In this document: positions 1,415 to 10,603 of the stretch, piece after piece
How the letters are laid out: every line of letters begins with the position of its first letter
How positions within the stretch are numbered: position 1 is the first letter of the stretch
NCBI GenBank assembly: GCA_963706595.1
Contig: OY970166.1
Span: forward strand, 640,001-704,000
DNA: 64,000 nucleotides
Origin: an uncultured cyanobacterium
Lineage (GTDB): Bacteria; Cyanobacteriota; Cyanobacteriia; Cyanobacteriales; Nostocaceae
Direction of reading: 5' to 3'
The notes under the pieces: model-generated
The model's database searches: none
Seen by the model: the letters and a program-made list of their open reading frames with translations, nothing else
What the model was told of the DNA's origin: nothing
Position numbers and translations under genes: made by a program

Positions 1415-2905
1415 TTACCCAGATTGTCGCCAATTGACTGGAGCTTCCAAATAATCAGGTAGACGAGTTGTGCGATCGCCTAGTGCCATTCTAATCTGTT
1501 GTAACTGGACATTTTTTGCTCCTGTCAAAATAGCCCCTTCCAGTTTGACCTCACAGAGGTTAGCATCCGAAAGGTTAGCGCCCATGAGGTTAGTCCCCGA
1601 AAGGTTAGCTTGAAAAAGACTAGCCCTATTCAAGTCTGAACCCATCAAATTGGCTCTATCTAAGTCAGCTTCAGCAAAACTGGCTTCGCTGAGGTCAGCA
1701 AAAAAGATTTCTGTTTGTTGCAATTTAGCCGCATTCAGGTTGGCCCCATTCAGGTTAGCCCCATTCAGGTTAGCTCCATTCAGGTTAGCTCCAATTAGAC
1801 CAGCAAATTGCAGATTGGCTTTACCCAGCTTCGCCCATTGCAAGTTAGCTAGAAACAACTTTGCGCCAGAGAGGTTAGCAACTTTCAATGTCGCTTGTTG
1901 CAAATTGGCTTTATAAAGGTTAGCCCCAGAGAGATTAGCCGCACGCAGACTTGCTCCCAAAAGGTTTGCACCTCGTAAATTCGTCCCACAAAGGTTAGCG
2001 TTGTTCAGGTTAGCCCAACAGAGGTTGGCTCGATTCAGGTTCGCTTTCAGCAGGTTGGCTGCATAAAGAATAGCGCCAGTCAGTAAAGCACCATCAAGAT
2101 TGGCCTCACACAGGTAAGAACCTCGCAAGTTGGCTCCACAAAGATTAGCACCGCGCAAATCGGCTCTTTCTAGGTTCGCTTCAAGCAAATCGGCTCGCCG
2201 GATATCAGTATTACGTAAATCCAGTTTTTGATCTTCCTCTTCTAGCAGAGAATTACGCCGTCCAATTACAGTCAAGGCTGCTTGAATATCCCGACGCATT
2301 TTTGGTATTACTTCGCCAGTATTCTGTTCTTCCTTTTGTGTCCGATGCGCCCCGCTTTTGTATCTACCCAAGTAGATGGGTTTTAAGTTTTCTAACCTTT
2401 GTTGTTCTTCCTCTGTTTGAATGGGAGCATTTTCCCGCACAAAAGCTGTGAGGATTTCCATGATTGTCCAGTGTTCTTTGGGAAAATCTTGTGCAACTCT
2501 TTCTAAAACATAAATTGCACCTGTCCGGGTTTCAATTTTTTCATGCCCAAGCTGGGTAATTGCCCCCATAAAGCGTTCTACAATCAGCTTGTCTTGACTG
2601 CATTGGGAATTTTGAATGCTAATTTCGTTGCTTTTTTCAGCCGCCAAAGCATTTTTGTGCATAGCTTCTGCACGCTTTGCCGCATAGTAAGCATTAATCA
2701 AAACTGCCAATCCGAGAAAAACTATGGATGTGGTTGTTAATACCTGATTTCGAGATTGTATTCTTTGGTCAACTGTCAATTCCTCAAGGTAGGACGATGC
2801 AAAAACAATCAGAGTTAGTGAAAGCACAAATATAACTGTTATGGCTATCAACCAACGCCAGAATTTGTCTGTTTTATAAGCAGACATAGCAGTAATATTC
2901 CTCAC
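1415..2905 (-). CDS. Membrane-anchored pentapeptide repeat protein
   Basis: Two N-terminal hydrophobic segments and a long A(N/D)LxX repeat tract at the C-terminus. Confidence 0.9.
   Translation of the reverse strand: MRNITAMSAYKTDKFWRWLIAITVIFVLSLTLIVFASSYLEELTVDQRIQSRNQVLTTTSIVFLGLAVLINAYYAAKRAEAMHKNALAAEKSNEISIQNSQCSQDKLIVERFMGAITQLGHEKIETRTGAIYVLERVAQDFPKEHWTIMEILTAFVRENAPIQTEEEQQRLENLKPIYLGRYKSGAHRTQKEEQNTGEVIPKMRRDIQAALTVIGRRNSLLEEEDQKLDLRNTDIRRADLLEANLERADLRGANLCGANLRGSYLCEANLDGALLTGAILYAANLLKANLNRANLCWANLNNANLCGTNLRGANLLGASLRAANLSGANLYKANLQQATLKVANLSGAKLFLANLQWAKLGKANLQFAGLIGANLNGANLNGANLNGANLNAAKLQQTEIFFADLSEASFAEADLDRANLMGSDLNRASLFQANLSGTNLMGANLSDANLCEVKLEGAILTGAKNVQLQQIRMALGDRTTRLPDYLEAPVNWRQSG
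1472..1479. repeat. HIP1 octamer GCGATCGC (one example; dozens across the window)
   Basis: GCGATCGC at 1472, 3085 and many other positions; a cyanobacterial hallmark. Confidence 0.95.
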
Positions 2906-3197
2906 AATACAGAATTATTACTTAGAGTTTAGGAAAAATTAGTATATCATTTAGCTGAAAATTTGAATATGCCCCACAACTAAGAATTTTTGAACATATA
3001 CCATAAGAATGAAGTCAGACTATTTTTTTGGATTCAATGGCATTAAATATAACAGTAATTTAATTTATTAGGTAGATTAATCACGCGATCGCCTCTGGTG
3101 GGGCTTTGCCCATGGCCTGTATAAGGGTAAAGTGATGATCCCACACCCTTGAAGTGTGGACGGTGATCCGAATTTAACAGTCTAGAGATGATTTTTC

Positions 3198-3947
3198 TCA
3201 TCCCAATTTGGCTTCTCGGAGATTTGCTCCTTTGAGTATGGCATCACCGAGAGTAGCTCCCTGTAGATTTGCTAGATATAAGTTAGCCTGTTCCAAATTA
3301 GCGCCCGCCAGATTAGCCCCAGAGAGGTTAGCAGCACTGAGAATTGCTCCAGAGAGGTTAGCGCCCGTCAGGTTAGCCCCAGAGAGGTTAGCAGCACTAA
3401 GAATTGCTCCAGAGAGGTTAGCCCCACAAAGGTTAGCTTGAGAAAGATTAACTTGATAGAGATTTGTCAGTTCTAGGTTGGCTTGATCAAGATTAGCCCC
3501 TCTCATATCCGTGTGGCTCAAATCCAGTAGTCCGTCTGACTCGTCTTGATCAGTATTTCTTCTCCCAATTACCGTCAGGGCTAATTGAATATCTCTAGGA
3601 ATTGTTGGTGATGGATAACTGTGAAACTGATTTCGATTCAGATCAGCAGCATAATTTTGCACAAAATTCGAGAGAATACCCATTATTTCCTGATGATATT
3701 GCGGATAATTTTGAGAAAATTCCTCTAAATCATAAATTACTGCTAGTCTGTTATCCAGATTTTCATGATTTAAATTTTTTGCAACTAGAAATAAAGGTGT
3801 TTGTCGCGTAGGAAATGTAATATCTACTACATTATTTTCGTTAACAACTATCCCCAGAATGATTTTTTGTAATGGTATCTGATTATTTATAAAATGCCGT
3901 TTTAATTGCTCTAATGCCTTGTAAGTATTAATAATTGCCATCAACAT
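3198..3947 (-). CDS. Pentapeptide repeat protein, paralog of the adjacent gene
   Basis: ANLSG/AILSA repeats; shares the DIQxALTVIGRR...LDL segment with 1415..2905. Confidence 0.85.
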   Translation of the reverse strand: MLMAIINTYKALEQLKRHFINNQIPLQKIILGIVVNENNVVDITFPTRQTPLFLVAKNLNHENLDNRLAVIYDLEEFSQNYPQYHQEIMGILSNFVQNYAADLNRNQFHSYPSPTIPRDIQLALTVIGRRNTDQDESDGLLDLSHTDMRGANLDQANLELTNLYQVNLSQANLCGANLSGAILSAANLSGANLTGANLSGAILSAANLSGANLAGANLEQANLYLANLQGATLGDAILKGANLREAKLG

Positions 3948-5723: not shown

Positions 5724-5825
5724 AAAACTACTTTTTTGAGTTAAAAAATTCGAGTCGCCTTCAGGTAACAAAAGGAGAGAAAAAAAGAACAAGTGCAAAG
5801 TGCAAAAGAGGAAAAGTATAAAGGG

Positions 5826-8800
5826 CTACTGAAGAATCCTCCCAACAGCGCAAACAACACGAAAACCAATATAGTTGTGGTGGTTGTCGCGAGTATTGGG
5901 GCTGCGAAACGCGGAACGGCAGTAGTTAGGATAGTTGAACCAGGACCCGCCCCGCAGTATGGCTCTTACTTTTTTTTGGGAAAGATTATCATTATCATCA
6001 AACCAAGGACTGCCATCTATTGGCGCTCTCTTATAGTTATAGTGCCAGTCATCAAGACACCATTCCCATACATTTCCGTGCATATCGTATAACCCAAAAG
6101 CATTTGCTACCCCAAAACTGTTCACTTCTGTTGTTTCGCCTCGATATTCTCCTTCTATACCTGCGCCATAAGTGAGTTGAGCTAAATAGTTTGCAAGTTC
6201 TGATGTGATTGTTTCACCAAAGTGAAATGGGGTTGTAGTTCCGGCTCTACAGGCATACTCCCATTCCGCTTCACTGGGTAAACGATAGGTTTTGCCAGTA
6301 TGCTGGGATAGGCGATCGCAAAACTCCAGCGCATCGTACCAAGAGACTTTCTCTACAGGTCGATTCCCATCCTTAAACTTAGATGGGTCAGGTTCAAGTC
6401 TTCGGTTAACTTGCGGCAAAGATGCTACTGCTTGCCATTGCGCCTGTGTTATGGGGTATTTGCCCATGAAAAACGCTGGGACAGTTACTTGGTGTTGTGG
6501 ACTTTCATTACTTGAACGCTCCGGTTCCTCTTTTGGCGACCCCATGATAAAACTACCTTCAGGAATAGCAACCATTTCTAAGGTGACGTTGTTACCAAGA
6601 TTTTCTGTGTCGTATTCGGCGAATTTGGTGTCTCGCTTGATAATTTTGCCTTGACGGTTAACAGTGACAGTTTCAAACTCAAAGGACTTTAGCTCATCAC
6701 TTTCTTTTGCCAAAGATTGAACATCTTTAAATTCTTCTTTAGAATCAAAAGCAGCGATGGTATTTCTCACTAAATTTTCGCCCTCTCCATCCTGATTTCT
6801 TTGGGCTGCTTTTAAAGCTAAATCCAATCTCACCAAAGGATCTTGATTCGCTTCAATCCAACGCCAATACTGAATTAATGTAACTGTGATTCTAGCACTG
6901 CGACAGATTTGATCTGAACTCAATTCGTTGTCATAACCCCATTCAAGAAACAAAATTAAATTTGAGTTTTCTTGCAGAAGTAACTGCCGTCCCTTATTAT
7001 TATCTCCATTGCCAAAAAGCTTGAGAATTGTGTCACAGAAATTATCCTGATAAAAATCCAACACTTTAGGAGCTAGATAATCTATCCCTCTTGCTTTCTG
7101 TAATTTACTTTCTGCATAAGTACGGGCAGGTTCGGGCAAAGTTACTCTCCAATCAGATGCAGTAGAAGATTTTTCTGCCATAGAAAACTTGAGCAATTCC
7201 ATTAAAGCTTTCTGACCACTCCTACCTTCAATAGCCCTAGCCAAATCCCGACTTAAGCCACTAGGAAAGAAAGCCAACAAAGGAAATATATCTTGCCCTT
7301 CTACCGATAACATTTCAAAAGAACGCTCTAAAGTTATCTGCAAACTTCTTTCTCTTCTTTGTTCAGGAGAATAAGAACCCAGAACTTCCAGTGGTTCAAT
7401 TTCCAAGTCTTCACACAGCATCTTCAGAGTACTTTGAGTTTCTGCCATATAAGATGCTGCTAGTTTAATGGGTAAGGGATAGCCATCAAGAAACTTGACT
7501 AAAAGATTAAAATCTTCCTCCAAATCATCACTATCTCCCCATTGTGCTTGTGATGGAGCATACTTTCTAAATATTTCTCTGGTTTCTAACACTCCCATGC
7601 TGCAAACTTCTTCTTGATGACAATAAAGAATATCCCTTACTAAAGAATTACGAGAAGTTAGCAACAGTCTTAAATTAGGACACTGTTCTAAAAGCGAGTT
7701 TAAAAATTCAATTAGTTCATTATATTCTTTCTCAATCAATCTATCTAAATCATCGAAAATTAGAAATACTCGACTATTCCTTAACTCTTTCTCTAAAGCG
7801 AAACTCTTTAATTCCAGATTCTGTTGAACTTTGGTAATCAAGGTTCCTACAGAATCAGTATCACGCAAACTAATAAACCAAACTCCATCCTGATAGCGAT
7901 TGCGCTCATGTAACCACTGACCAATGGCATAAGCTAATGCAGTTTTACCTATTCCTCCCATACCATGTAGAGCAATACAACGTTTATCTGACTCTACCAG
8001 GACTTTAATTACCTGATGTATTTCTTGTCTGCGCCCGACAAAGTTAGGATTGTCACGGGTAATATTAGTATTTGACCACTGGGGATAGATAACCTGGTGA
8101 GAATTAGCTGGTTCTATAATCAGCGATTCATTATGGGAAACTTGGGGGAGTAATCGAAATTTAAAGGCTTCATCAAAATTAACCCCTGCCTCAAAAGTCT
8201 GAGAGTTAAACTGCTTTTTTAAGTTATCATCAAGTTTAACAGCTTTACGACTCGATAAAAATCCATCACCAACTGAATCTTCATTGAATAATGCTTGATA
8301 AAGTCTTCGAGAAAAACATCGGGCTGCAATATCTAAGATTGTATCTTCAGCGTTAACAGCAATTACATGAGACACTCCTACTTTGACAAAAGCTTGAGCT
8401 AATTTCTCTGAATGACAGGCATTCAATAATGCTAATTGACAAGGTGGTTGCTTCAGATTTGATAAAGCGATGGCAAGTTCTTCTTCACTAAAAGCACGAG
8501 TCATTCCTACTGAATCTTCTAGCACCAAAGCTGTGCTATCCTCATCTTTCATTCCATGACCAATAAAATGAATAATCAATGGTTTGGAACGATTGGAAAA
8601 CACATCTTGTAGCGTCTGAGAGGTGGCGACTTTCACCACTATTTCCACTGATATAGGATGAGATATATCTTCTAAAACTGAAGCGACCGCATCAATTTCT
8701 TTCTGGATTGATAAATTCTCGACTGGTAATGATTTTTCATCGAGTAGAGGTGCTGAAAATAATATCAGAATTTGATTATTGAAGGCATGATCTTTTTTAA

Positions 8801-8858
8801 TATCTTCTTCTACCCCTGGATTCAGGGGAACCCGTTGACCCACTTTTGAGACAACCAT
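5826..8858 (-). CDS. CHAT (caspase-like) protease + NB-ARC/STAND NTPase + FGE-sulfatase (CLec-fold) multidomain protein
   Basis: CHAT dyad IIHFIGHG / LLNACHS; FVGR, Walker A GMGGIGKT, Walker B FLIFDDLD; C-terminal RLPSEAEWEYACRAG, NAFGLYDMHGNVWEWC, RGGSW...GFRVV. Confidence 0.92.
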   Translation of the reverse strand: MVVSKVGQRVPLNPGVEEDIKKDHAFNNQILILFSAPLLDEKSLPVENLSIQKEIDAVASVLEDISHPISVEIVVKVATSQTLQDVFSNRSKPLIIHFIGHGMKDEDSTALVLEDSVGMTRAFSEEELAIALSNLKQPPCQLALLNACHSEKLAQAFVKVGVSHVIAVNAEDTILDIAARCFSRRLYQALFNEDSVGDGFLSSRKAVKLDDNLKKQFNSQTFEAGVNFDEAFKFRLLPQVSHNESLIIEPANSHQVIYPQWSNTNITRDNPNFVGRRQEIHQVIKVLVESDKRCIALHGMGGIGKTALAYAIGQWLHERNRYQDGVWFISLRDTDSVGTLITKVQQNLELKSFALEKELRNSRVFLIFDDLDRLIEKEYNELIEFLNSLLEQCPNLRLLLTSRNSLVRDILYCHQEEVCSMGVLETREIFRKYAPSQAQWGDSDDLEEDFNLLVKFLDGYPLPIKLAASYMAETQSTLKMLCEDLEIEPLEVLGSYSPEQRRERSLQITLERSFEMLSVEGQDIFPLLAFFPSGLSRDLARAIEGRSGQKALMELLKFSMAEKSSTASDWRVTLPEPARTYAESKLQKARGIDYLAPKVLDFYQDNFCDTILKLFGNGDNNKGRQLLLQENSNLILFLEWGYDNELSSDQICRSARITVTLIQYWRWIEANQDPLVRLDLALKAAQRNQDGEGENLVRNTIAAFDSKEEFKDVQSLAKESDELKSFEFETVTVNRQGKIIKRDTKFAEYDTENLGNNVTLEMVAIPEGSFIMGSPKEEPERSSNESPQHQVTVPAFFMGKYPITQAQWQAVASLPQVNRRLEPDPSKFKDGNRPVEKVSWYDALEFCDRLSQHTGKTYRLPSEAEWEYACRAGTTTPFHFGETITSELANYLAQLTYGAGIEGEYRGETTEVNSFGVANAFGLYDMHGNVWEWCLDDWHYNYKRAPIDGSPWFDDNDNLSQKKVRAILRGGSWFNYPNYCRSAFRSPNTRDNHHNYIGFRVVCAVGRILQ

Positions 8859-8862
8859 TCCT

Positions 8863-9237
8863 CTATTTCCTCTTCAGTAGCTCTATTATTGAGTTCAACC
8901 ATTCCTCTAACTCCTCATCACTAGCATTATCGAGGTCTAGGGGAGGAAGTTTTGGGTGTGTTAACTTACCTTCTGGTTTTATTCCTTTTTCTCGAAGTTT
9001 TCGCCGCCAATTATTAATCGCTTTAGCGACTTTTATAGAGTACTCTATCAAATTGGCTGCTGCGGCTGCCCCTCCAATTACTGTAGCCACAAAAACTATG
9101 TCATCTGCACCAAAGACACGATTTAATGACTTCTGCACATTTATTGAACTCATCGTTAGTGATGTTTCCAATGAGTCGATTTCATCTGGTGGCAGTTGGG
9201 ATGAAATAATTATGCTACAGATAGGAATTTCGCTCAT
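8863..9237 (-). CDS. Small protein with a central hydrophobic helix, EACC1-like; probable partner of the CHAT protein
   Basis: 124 aa; FGADDIVFVATVIGGAAAAANLIEYSIKVAKAINNWRRK. Its stop lies 4 nt before the start of the CHAT gene. Confidence 0.7.
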   Translation of the reverse strand: MSEIPICSIIISSQLPPDEIDSLETSLTMSSINVQKSLNRVFGADDIVFVATVIGGAAAAANLIEYSIKVAKAINNWRRKLREKGIKPEGKLTHPKLPPLDLDNASDEELEEWLNSIIELLKRK

Positions 9238-9338: not shown

Positions 9339-10043
9339 ATGGGTTTTCAACTCGAAAGCATCATTCCTTGGGGACGTTCAATGCTGGAATATACCCAGAT
9401 GTTTGATTTAACTCCTGAAGAATTCAATTTAAATATACTCGATTGTGCTGGTGGTCCTGCTAGTTTCAATGCAGAAATGACACTTCAAGGCTACAAAGTT
9501 ATTTCTTGTGACCCAGTTTATCAATTTACAGCCGATGAAATTGCTCAACGCATTCAAGACACTTATGAAATAGTTATTCAAGGTGTGAAAGCCAATCGAG
9601 AATGCTATGTTTGGCGGAATGTTCAGTCACCAGAAATGATGGGTGAAATTAGGATGTCAGCAATGCGTCAATTTTTGGTAGATTTCCCTAACGGAATCAA
9701 TCAAGGGCGTTATCTAAAAGATGAATTACCTGTTTTACCTTTTGCAGCGAATCAATTTGATTTGGCTTTGTGTTCCCACCTATTATTTACCTATTCTGAG
9801 CAACTTTCAGCAGAGTTTCATTTAGCATCGATTATGGAAATGTGCCGAGTTGCCAAGGAAGTACGCATTTTTCCATTGTTACAATTATCTGGGGAATTAT
9901 CTCCCTGGCTGCAACCAGTGATAAATGAATTACAACAACGGGGATATGCGGTAAAAATCAAACAAGTTGCTTATGAGTTTCAGAAGAATGGGAACCAAAT
10001 GCTGTGTGTCAACTCAGATATAGGAATCCGGTTTGATTTATGA
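9339..10043 (+). CDS. SAM-dependent methyltransferase family protein
   Basis: ILDCAGGPASF motif I, LPFAANQFDLALCSHLLF, EMCRVAKEVRIFP. Confidence 0.85.
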   Translation: MGFQLESIIPWGRSMLEYTQMFDLTPEEFNLNILDCAGGPASFNAEMTLQGYKVISCDPVYQFTADEIAQRIQDTYEIVIQGVKANRECYVWRNVQSPEMMGEIRMSAMRQFLVDFPNGINQGRYLKDELPVLPFAANQFDLALCSHLLFTYSEQLSAEFHLASIMEMCRVAKEVRIFPLLQLSGELSPWLQPVINELQQRGYAVKIKQVAYEFQKNGNQMLCVNSDIGIRFDL

Positions 10044-10495
10044 AAAAAATTAAGTATTGTAGTAGCGTGGCAAGCTTAAAGTAGTGCATTAGGAAAAAGC
10101 AGAAAACATTGATTTATCTCAATTTTCCCAAAAATCTATTGCAACATTTTAGCGTTGTCAGTCCAGTAGTGGCGTGGCAAGCTTAAAGTAGTGCATTAGG
10201 CAAAAGCAGAAAACATTGATTTATCTCAATTTTCTCAAAAATCTATTGCAACATTTTAGCCTTGCCACGCCAGTAGGGTGCGTTAGGATGAAATCCGTAA
10301 CGCACCATTCATTATTAAGGCTTTGGTGCGTTACGCTACCGCTAACACACCCTACTGGACTGACAAGCTTAAAATAGTGCATTAGGTAAAAGCAGAAAAC
10401 ATTGATTTATCTCAATTTTCTCAAAAATCTATTGCAACATTTTAGCCTTGTCCCGCCACTACTTGTTTGTTCAATAATCAAATAGTATTCCTATA
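10019..10495. mobile_element. Composite MITE: outer TIR element holding a REP-like palindrome and three 107-bp inner elements
   Basis: Outer TIRs TATAGGAATCCGGTTTGATT / AATCAAATAGTATTCCTATA. Inner near-identical units start at 10059, 10166 and 10352. REP-like gtagggtgcgtt...acaccctac at 10273-10355. Confidence 0.8.
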
Positions 10496-10603
10496 TTTGA
10501 AGCCCAGGATTTTCTACAGGCGATAATTGGGGCGTTGCTGATGTCAAAACCACTGTATTACTAGAGACGTTCAATCGAACGTCTCTACACCTAAATTTAT
10601 ACT

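Follow-up and report, generated by a model that had tools for sequence, protein, structure and literature searches.

Introduction

Systems in which an EACC1 protein is paired with a caspase, STAND fusions included, were defined by Kaur et al. (2020, PMC7159879), and in one of them the caspase-STAND protein KrAvs12 cuts EACC1 to give a toxic C-terminal fragment, with leakage of liposomes (Evans 2025, bioRxiv 10.1101/2025.11.14.688446). Here we describe a two-gene cassette that associates a small EACC1-like protein (P0002) with a large protein (P0001) composed of a CHAT caspase-like protease, a STAND NTPase and a C-type-lectin-fold (CLec) domain. It lies in a stretch of 64,000 nt, called the window below, from an uncultured cyanobacterium (Nostocaceae; assembly GCA_963706595.1, contig OY970166.1, positions 640,001-704,000, forward strand). 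The architecture class is already known, and this branch of it had escaped the family models. What we add is a divergent effector branch, its pairing with CHAT, direct template evidence for the diversification of the sensor, and forms that bear TPRs.

We cite the published sources as far as their accessible text goes. According to this text, the N-terminal fragment of EACC1 pairs with two C-terminal strands and certain EACC1 proteases are fused to domains linked to diversity-generating retroelements (DGRs) (Evans 2025). STAND-FGS proteins that have caspases as effectors and are accompanied by DGRs have been reported (Kaur 2021, PMC8195603), and DGR-diversified antigen sensors have been proposed, the CLec domains of STAND proteins being presented as not experimentally characterised (Dore 2024, PMC10907252); the accessible part of a 2026 STAND survey (PMC13581612) mentions STAND-FGE/CLec only as a sensor type. 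The variable proteins of remote cyanobacterial DGRs have been read as regulatory tuning (Vallota-Eastman 2020, PMC7517822). In SAVED-CHAT (bioRxiv 10.1101/2023.06.23.546230), ligand-driven oligomerisation activates a protease that is specific for the product of a neighbouring gene. Full-text searches of the literature did not bring up this particular family; it may still be listed in figures or source data of Kaur 2020 or Evans 2025, and the spreadsheet and zip supplements of Evans 2025 contain no EACC1 rows.

Results

A near-fixed gene pair with the distribution of a mobile cassette

As stated in a preliminary description made from the sequence of this DNA, the small gene (124 aa) ends 4 nt before the large one (1010 aa), both on the minus strand (Table 1). 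Orthologous pairs mostly overlap by 19 nt and the usual length of their small protein is 117 aa; the 4-nt spacing is a local trait of the window copy. A profile search of GTDB genomes with the small protein gave 46 loci, whose named source taxa are all cyanobacteria. The cassette's CHAT clade is found directly downstream of the small gene in 44 of them, so that, as in EACC1 systems, a caspase-superfamily protease is encoded immediately 3′ of the small gene. The two orphan small genes are those of L043, where transposases come next, and L048, which is a fragment. A further 17 loci came from metagenomes: 16 keep this gene order, and the last is partial and inverted, at the end of a contig. The survey of gene neighbourhoods that the preliminary description had proposed thus came out for linkage.

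Among the 44 linked loci, 35 have intact large open reading frames (ORFs) of at least 900 aa, all ending in CLec, four leave the contig and five are broken; one small gene of the 46 loci (L014) has an internal stop. In a copy at L004:6336-7869, CHAT contains a stop, the entire STAND is deleted and the end of CHAT is joined to CLec. Three of 401 evenly sampled cyanobacterial genomes hold the small gene, and these three are also the ones with a CHAT of this clade (E<1e-140). The next-best CHATs are at 1e-18 or worse and have different upstream genes (a fourth weak small-gene match, in a 457-aa frame, was not counted). This survey is not a separate sample, because two of its three genomes are apparently among the 46 loci.

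The flanking genes are unrelated to the pair, as first described: one encodes an FAD oxidoreductase (Pfam), and the other gives methyltransferase matches only, all below the Pfam cut-offs. The two flanks are 114 and 113 bp apart in two same-genus genomes, against 3612 bp in the window, so that both of the genomes tested (2/2) have an empty site. Moreover, the nearest upstream genes differ widely across the 46 loci, and ParA/ParB genes adjoin some copies (L173, L174). Since the pair is linked, its sites can be empty, its upstream genes vary and ParA/ParB genes neighbour it, the distribution is that of a mobile accessory cassette. No relatives were found in viral contigs, nor in plasmids for one distant relative.

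The large protein is a CHAT-STAND-CLec protein

Three Pfam families match P0001 above their cut-offs, CHAT at residues 43-192 (E 3.6e-10), NB-ARC at residues 278-491 (E 1.9e-15) and FGE-sulfatase at residues 761-1002 (E 1.2e-56), in agreement with the domains initially recognised. The His/Cys dyad, likewise noted as intact, is unchanged in 43/43 aligned CHAT domains (HFIGHG, H101; LNACHS, C148). All of the 36 full-length proteins retain GKT in Walker A and DD in Walker B. Effector, NTPase and sensor follow one another in the order of NB-ARC-type STAND proteins, and Walker A, Walker B, sensor-1 and GxP are all present; furthermore, the PEP of an LPEP motif, which presumably occupies the place of the usual NB-ARC MHD motif, is invariant in the same 36 proteins. 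In a profile comparison with PDB sequences the sole match of CHAT was 8tl0 (E 8.7e-8), a CHAT domain-containing protein that we take to be SAVED-CHAT. The CLec domain matches the DGR target TvpA (2y3c, E 1.9e-20). The matches of FGE models are at fold level only, far under the equivalog cut-offs, and we assume that the segment holding the FGE active site corresponds to the hypervariable region of P0001.

In the preliminary description, the lectin-fold sensor takes the place of the usual TPR/WD40 array. The history of the predicted sensor is better described as an addition behind a shrinking array, since TPR_12 or SNAP matches lie between STAND and CLec in the longer, more divergent orthologs L035 and L009; a third such ortholog, L046, has no TPR or SNAP match there. 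CLec may have been added behind a TPR array that later shrank, the direction of this change being unrooted.

The CLec tip is a DGR target in several orthologs

The DGR variable region in the CLec tip is a point absent from the preliminary description. Over 35 proteins, residues 968-1002 have a mean pairwise identity of 0.52, the lowest of the parts measured (0.78 for CHAT, 0.76 for STAND and 0.69 for the rest of CLec). In the Microcystis locus L026, Avd, a reverse transcriptase (RT) and a template stand directly behind the cassette, in cis, and 22 of the 23 differences between template and variable region are at template adenines. Locus L165 shares this Avd-RT-template arrangement and has a shortened variable region, and Avd-like sequence follows the cassette in 8/46 loci. 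The L026 template was searched in 37 genomes, with only the best match examined, in 30 genomes; many of these matches are the gene itself or a paralog. Thirteen variable-region/template pairs were aligned with gaps, and five look cognate (L026, L036, L021, L015 and L024), with 22/23, 19/20 (over 84 nt), 14/15, 17/20 and 15/21 of their mismatches at template adenines. Four of these five templates are in trans, with an RT beside the template, and the target gene of L015 is itself interrupted. The CLec tip of several orthologs is a target of DGRs.

The window's genome, which is 94% complete, yielded no cognate template, the best match having 19 non-adenine mismatches in 105 nt, and its DGR RT, of 304 aa, has no template behind it. 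Furthermore, a perfect hairpin of at least 6 bp, found in 12/35 orthologs, is absent in the window, where one arm carries two changes relative to the perfect hairpin of close orthologs. Diversification looks frozen in this strain. From DGR anatomy, the 3′ hairpin and pyrimidine tract presumably have a role in the DGR process. The window variable region remains compatible with a Westiellopsis template, 10 of the 16 mismatches being at adenines. The contigs of three DNA runs cover the locus in pieces and do not resolve variants of the variable region; no RNA data set holding the locus was listed, which does not bear on its expression.

The same genome has other CLec genes. At G000:C1:4623926-4626962, a TIR-CLec gene is followed by Avd and then by the 304-aa DGR RT, apparently without its C-terminus. 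Template-like repeats stand behind the CLec genes at G000:C1:3651703-3654449 and 4450866-4454235, with no RT nearby. The first of these encodes a caspase-like N-terminus, 14 of the 18 differences between its variable region and the repeat are at adenines, and the small gene ahead of it is, we assume, Pepco-like. At G000:C1:4505294-4510563 a MoxR-like ATPase gene is accompanied by two CLec genes, one encoding a protein of 1081 aa and the other short and CLec-only, and the variable regions there are the genome's closest to that of the window (78-80% over 260 nt). At G000:C1:1870953-1873323 a second, conventional EACC1-like gene precedes a caspase-CLec gene; the window's genome therefore has two EACC1-type modules bearing CLec sensors.

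The small protein probably belongs to a divergent EACC1-like branch

P0002 and 47 aligned close relatives gave 0/48 matches to Pfam EACC1 (PF19953, curated cut-off 23.6 bits), and we therefore file the small protein as EACC1-like and not as a PF19953 member. The model is insensitive in the cyanobacterial phylum, as it had zero over-cut-off matches in 301 cyanobacterial genomes. An unindexed HMMER search gave 105 relatives of the small protein at E<=0.001, of which 87 were scanned with Pfam, mostly leaving out short fragments. Single metagenome proteins make up the greater part of these distant relatives. Fourteen of these 87 distant relatives match PF19953 at E<0.01 (16.5-21.6 bits, every one under the cut-off), and EACC1 is the sole recurrent Pfam family among them. 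The three nearest named clusters in the Atlas (0.88, 0.87 and 0.86) contain EACC1 in 10-35% of their members, which we take at the level of a lead. Phage_portal and HTH_32 matches of the small family were below cut-off and were rejected.

As a control we used a cyanobacterial EACC1-like family seeded from the best sub-threshold PF19953 match (L062-L091), which lies slightly below the Pfam cut-off and occurs in 40/301 genomes, with weak PF19953 matches in 11 of 24 members; the caspase downstream of its seed passes NF047832, the EACC1-associated caspase model of NCBIfam. When a diverse profile of 85 sequences was compared with this family by hhalign, the two aligned in register over the C-terminal strands and helix (P 0.006, against 0.15 for a reversed control). 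The AlphaFold2 model of P0002 (E3-12, H17-29, E33-41, E44-54, H59-83, E90-94, E97-101, H107-123; mean predicted local distance difference test, pLDDT, 76.5) has the predicted order beta-alpha-beta-loop-beta-alpha-beta-beta-alpha. That of the control (pLDDT 69.6 overall) has E6-13, H20-40, a two-residue strand and a disordered loop, followed by E65-71, H72-86, E91-96, E102-107 and H110-125, and the predicted order of elements is common to both. The VIA top-50 lists of P0002 and the control share eight entries, several over near-identical chain ranges, which are generic ferredoxin-like matches.

These data support the small protein as a divergent EACC1-like branch, and its apparent homology to EACC1-like proteins is sub-threshold and recurrent. 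The EACC1-like assignment of the preliminary description is thus upheld by sub-cut-off matches, the Atlas, element order and linkage, and did not pass the Pfam model. As for the homology searches proposed there, the profile search returned EACC1 below cut-off and a Foldseek comparison of the small protein with the PDB gave no match of any kind at E<=0.001. The idea that the small domain is never fused, after a word-indexed search that gave no fusion, was rejected when HMMER found the long proteins P0157 and P0203. In these the EACC1-like domain is C-terminal, behind an M48 peptidase domain in one and behind a membrane domain (weak YLATT similarity) in the other.

A basic residue precedes the hydrophobic stretch

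The small protein has a single, conserved hydrophobic segment with small residues at its centre and alpha+beta flanks, as in EACC1 systems. Its best 19-residue Kyte-Doolittle mean is 1.84, and this mean is at least 1.6 in 46/48 close relatives; the amphipathic helix has a hydrophobic moment of 0.44-0.51 and a net charge of +1 to +6. Position 40 is Arg in 48/48 and 124/127 close relatives, and basic in 76/85 diverse relatives (R 65, K 11). D45 and D46 are kept in 126 and 125 of the 127 close relatives, and in 35/85 and 13/85 of the diverse ones. In the model of P0002, residues 40-44 form a loop with pLDDT<50 directly ahead of the hydrophobic stretch. Members of the control family often have a basic residue ahead of their hydrophobic stretch as well (PxGxK), which echoes Arg40.

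A cut near RVFG-ADD had been suggested. Among distant relatives it is Arg40 that is kept, and the DD pair is kept poorly. Because a basic residue 40 is kept and the low-confidence loop lies ahead of the hydrophobic stretch, we predict that the activating cut may occur after Arg40. Arg-Gly sites are reported for a different bacterial caspase-like protease (Evans 2025).

Table 1. Positions of the cassette features in the window
Feature	Position	Strand	Basis or reading
Small EACC1-like gene, P0002, 124 aa	8863..9237	-	ORF call; predicted latent pore effector
CHAT-STAND-helical-CLec gene, P0001, 1010 aa	5826..8858	-	ORF call, Pfam and motif alignment
Arg40 codon, predicted P1 of the activating cleavage	9118..9120	-	Conservation and low-confidence loop
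Hydrophobic, small-residue-rich stretch, residues 41-64, then basic amphipathic helix to residue 83	9046..9117	-	Hydropathy
CHAT caspase-like protease domain, ~residues 28-250	8109..8777	-	Pfam CHAT; dyad H101 (8556-8558), C148 (8415-8417)
NB-ARC-type STAND NTPase	7104..8027	-	Walker A GMGGIGKT, Walker B hhhDD, sensor-1 TSR, GxP; Pfam and alignment
Helical region	6714..7091	-	Likely TPR-array remnant; longer orthologs still have TPRs
FGE-sulfatase/CLec domain, predicted sensor	5853..6578	-	Pfam 1.2e-56; TvpA 2y3c match
DGR-type variable region (LRGGSW...GFRVV), NNY-codon-rich	5853..5957	-	Low identity; adenine-biased template differences in orthologs
3′ pyrimidine tract and damaged hairpin (5754-5769), likely DGR cis element	5754..5825	-	Ortholog comparison

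Elsewhere in the window, a promoter scan gave 15 sites against 8.9 +/- 3.0 expected, with a single site upstream on the cassette strand (9350-9323), and we do not rely on this result. Multi-copy intergenic repeat sequence, matched dozens of times in genomes of the same genus, lies at 10010-10500, and a tandem pair of pentapeptide-repeat genes at 1415-3947 on the minus strand.

Discussion

We consider that the pair is probably a self-killing immune cassette, in which CLec sensing leads through STAND and CHAT to an EACC1-like pore. A molecule of the invader would be bound by the CLec tip, the part that DGRs rewrite in several relatives; the STAND module would then form oligomers and thereby activate CHAT. 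The predicted substrate of the protease is the small EACC1-like protein, which would be cleaved after Arg40, and the freed 9-kDa C-terminal fragment would make a membrane pore, leading to cell death. The mechanism first sketched for this locus is likely right, since EACC1 has been published as a pore toxin that a protease activates. Activation by oligomerisation, cleavage and pore formation would operate here by analogy, as they are carried over from KrAvs12-EACC1 and SAVED-CHAT, and the ligand might be a phage protein. Predicted complexes of the small protein and two CHAT domains scored 0.30 and 0.00, for a mark of 0.32, and we count them neither for nor against this reading.

A more ambitious version is possible, albeit somewhat doubtful. 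The two genes would form a complete adaptive circuit, made of a hypermutated antibody-like CLec, an NLR-type switch, an Arg-specific CHAT and a pore toxin. The cassette would once have had its own DGR, for which the Avd remnants behind many copies are cited. The TPR-plus-CLec orthologs would record the passage from a fixed pattern receptor to an evolvable one, and the effector would stand for a widespread EACC1 branch, so far unrecognised, that comprises ~100 clusters at 50% identity.

Several observations weigh against the self-killing cassette or parts of it. On the side of the effector, none of the 48 close members matches the Pfam EACC1 model, comparisons of close-family profiles with cyanobacterial EACC1 (hhalign/HMM) were not significant, and the probability of the in-register hhalign alignment of the diverse profile was only 6%. 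On the side of the protease, P0001 scores 19.7 bits with NF047832 for a cut-off of 140, while the control caspase of L055 reaches 167.8 bits. The divergence of the small protein follows that of CHAT to a moderate degree, with a Spearman coefficient of 0.45-0.50, no better than it follows CLec, and L009 and L175 combine small and large genes from different clades. Eight of the 13 variable-region/template pairs are not cognate, about half of their mismatches being off adenines. The cassette is isolated among housekeeping genes and not in a defence island, and models of defence systems gave no convincing pass (best PADLOC scores, TRIP13 20.5 bits and Avs4 15.3 bits). Named Avs families gave no match beyond Avs4 at 15-16 bits, in libraries that may be without the newer Avs families. 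Finally, the predicted cut of KrEACC1 is a modelled Asp49, not an Arg (Evans 2025, 10.1101/2025.11.14.688446), so that here too a cut at an Asp (D45/D46, practically invariant in close relatives) could be the one used.

The isolation of the locus also bears on what the sensor reads. The same machinery could answer self/non-self or host-stress ligands, as in a kin recognition similar to fungal heterokaryon incompatibility. Kin recognition has been raised for DGR-diversified STAND-CLec proteins (Dore 2024, PMC10907252), non-defence sensors on EACC1 modules are noted in the accessible text of Evans 2025 (10.1101/2025.11.14.688446), and no phage ligand is known. We nevertheless find such a trigger unlikely: patchy gain and breakage (five large and one small gene broken, two orphans, among 46 loci) and copies beside ParA/ParB genes fit an arms-race defence gene, and phage proteins are what characterised STAND sensors detect, as far as the sources describe them.

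Two other explanations concern the small protein. It could remain uncleaved and act at the membrane as an adaptor, a sensor or an inhibitor of CHAT, which would kill by cutting other host proteins. A membrane-sensor role was the first proposed for EACC1 (Kaur 2020, PMC7159879), stand-alone caspase-like defence proteases have been described, and the weak co-divergence with CHAT goes in the same direction. Yet the hydrophobic stretch comes after an exposed loop whose basic residue is kept in 76 of the 85 diverse relatives, and the single EACC1 tested, according to the accessible text of Evans 2025, is a cleaved effector, which makes an uncleaved adaptor quite unlikely. Alternatively, the small protein could be unrelated to EACC1, a ferredoxin-like substrate from which the protease frees a signalling fragment (in the manner of Csx30 or an anti-sigma factor) and which makes no pore. 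This would account for the missing direct Pfam match and for VIA matches to a common ferredoxin-like arrangement (Z about 7-8). We regard it as very improbable, as EACC1 is the one family that recurs among the 87 distant relatives, and in the 46 loci the closest genes upstream were not seen to encode a sigma factor or a regulator.

If the self-killing immune cassette is the right reading, it addresses the open question of what the DGR-diversified sensors of multicellular bacteria detect. It would be a minimal test system, with a DGR-type sensor and a likely lethal output in two genes. Because sensor and likely lethal output are coupled in so few genes, ligands could be identified with death as the read-out, and adaptive-like immunity could be put to the test. 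The cassette would also extend EACC1-type effectors to a branch missed by Pfam and to CHAT-type proteases.

Comparison with known systems

The cassette resembles the remote-DGR variable proteins of cyanobacteria (PMC7517822) by its C-terminal CLec with a variable region and by remote targeting; caspase-like and CHAT-like N-termini are reported there, and a linked pore-type effector is not described in the accessible text. SAVED-CHAT (bioRxiv 10.1101/2023.06.23.546230) is the closest solved CHAT by sequence. It differs, in what is described, by its cyclic oligoadenylate activator (type III CRISPR), by a second protease as substrate, and by having neither STAND nor CLec.

With EACC1-caspase systems the cassette shares a small gene of similar size, encoding a single Gly/Ala-rich hydrophobic stretch, 5′ of a caspase-superfamily-STAND gene, and N-terminal strands predicted to pair with two C-terminal strands. 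In contrast to these systems, its small protein is under the Pfam EACC1 model and has motifs of its own (W77, R78, LDL-A-D-E-W), and its protease is CHAT-type, not NF047832-type. Unlike KrAvs12-EACC1, it has a CLec instead of an Avs12 sensor, and a predicted P1 Arg instead of the modelled Asp49.

The STAND-FGS(CLec)-DGR systems, as the accessible reports present them, have the same effector-STAND-CLec order with caspases among their N-terminal effectors, a DGR in cis or elsewhere, an enrichment in cyanobacteria and a predicted adaptive-like sensing. Their listed cores are NACHT, MNS, nSTAND1, KAP and AP-GTPase, with EAD adaptors, whereas the core of the cassette has NB-ARC as its best-scoring match. 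The cassette further departs from them in that its partner is an EACC1-like, presumptive death effector and that some of its orthologs keep TPRs between STAND and CLec.

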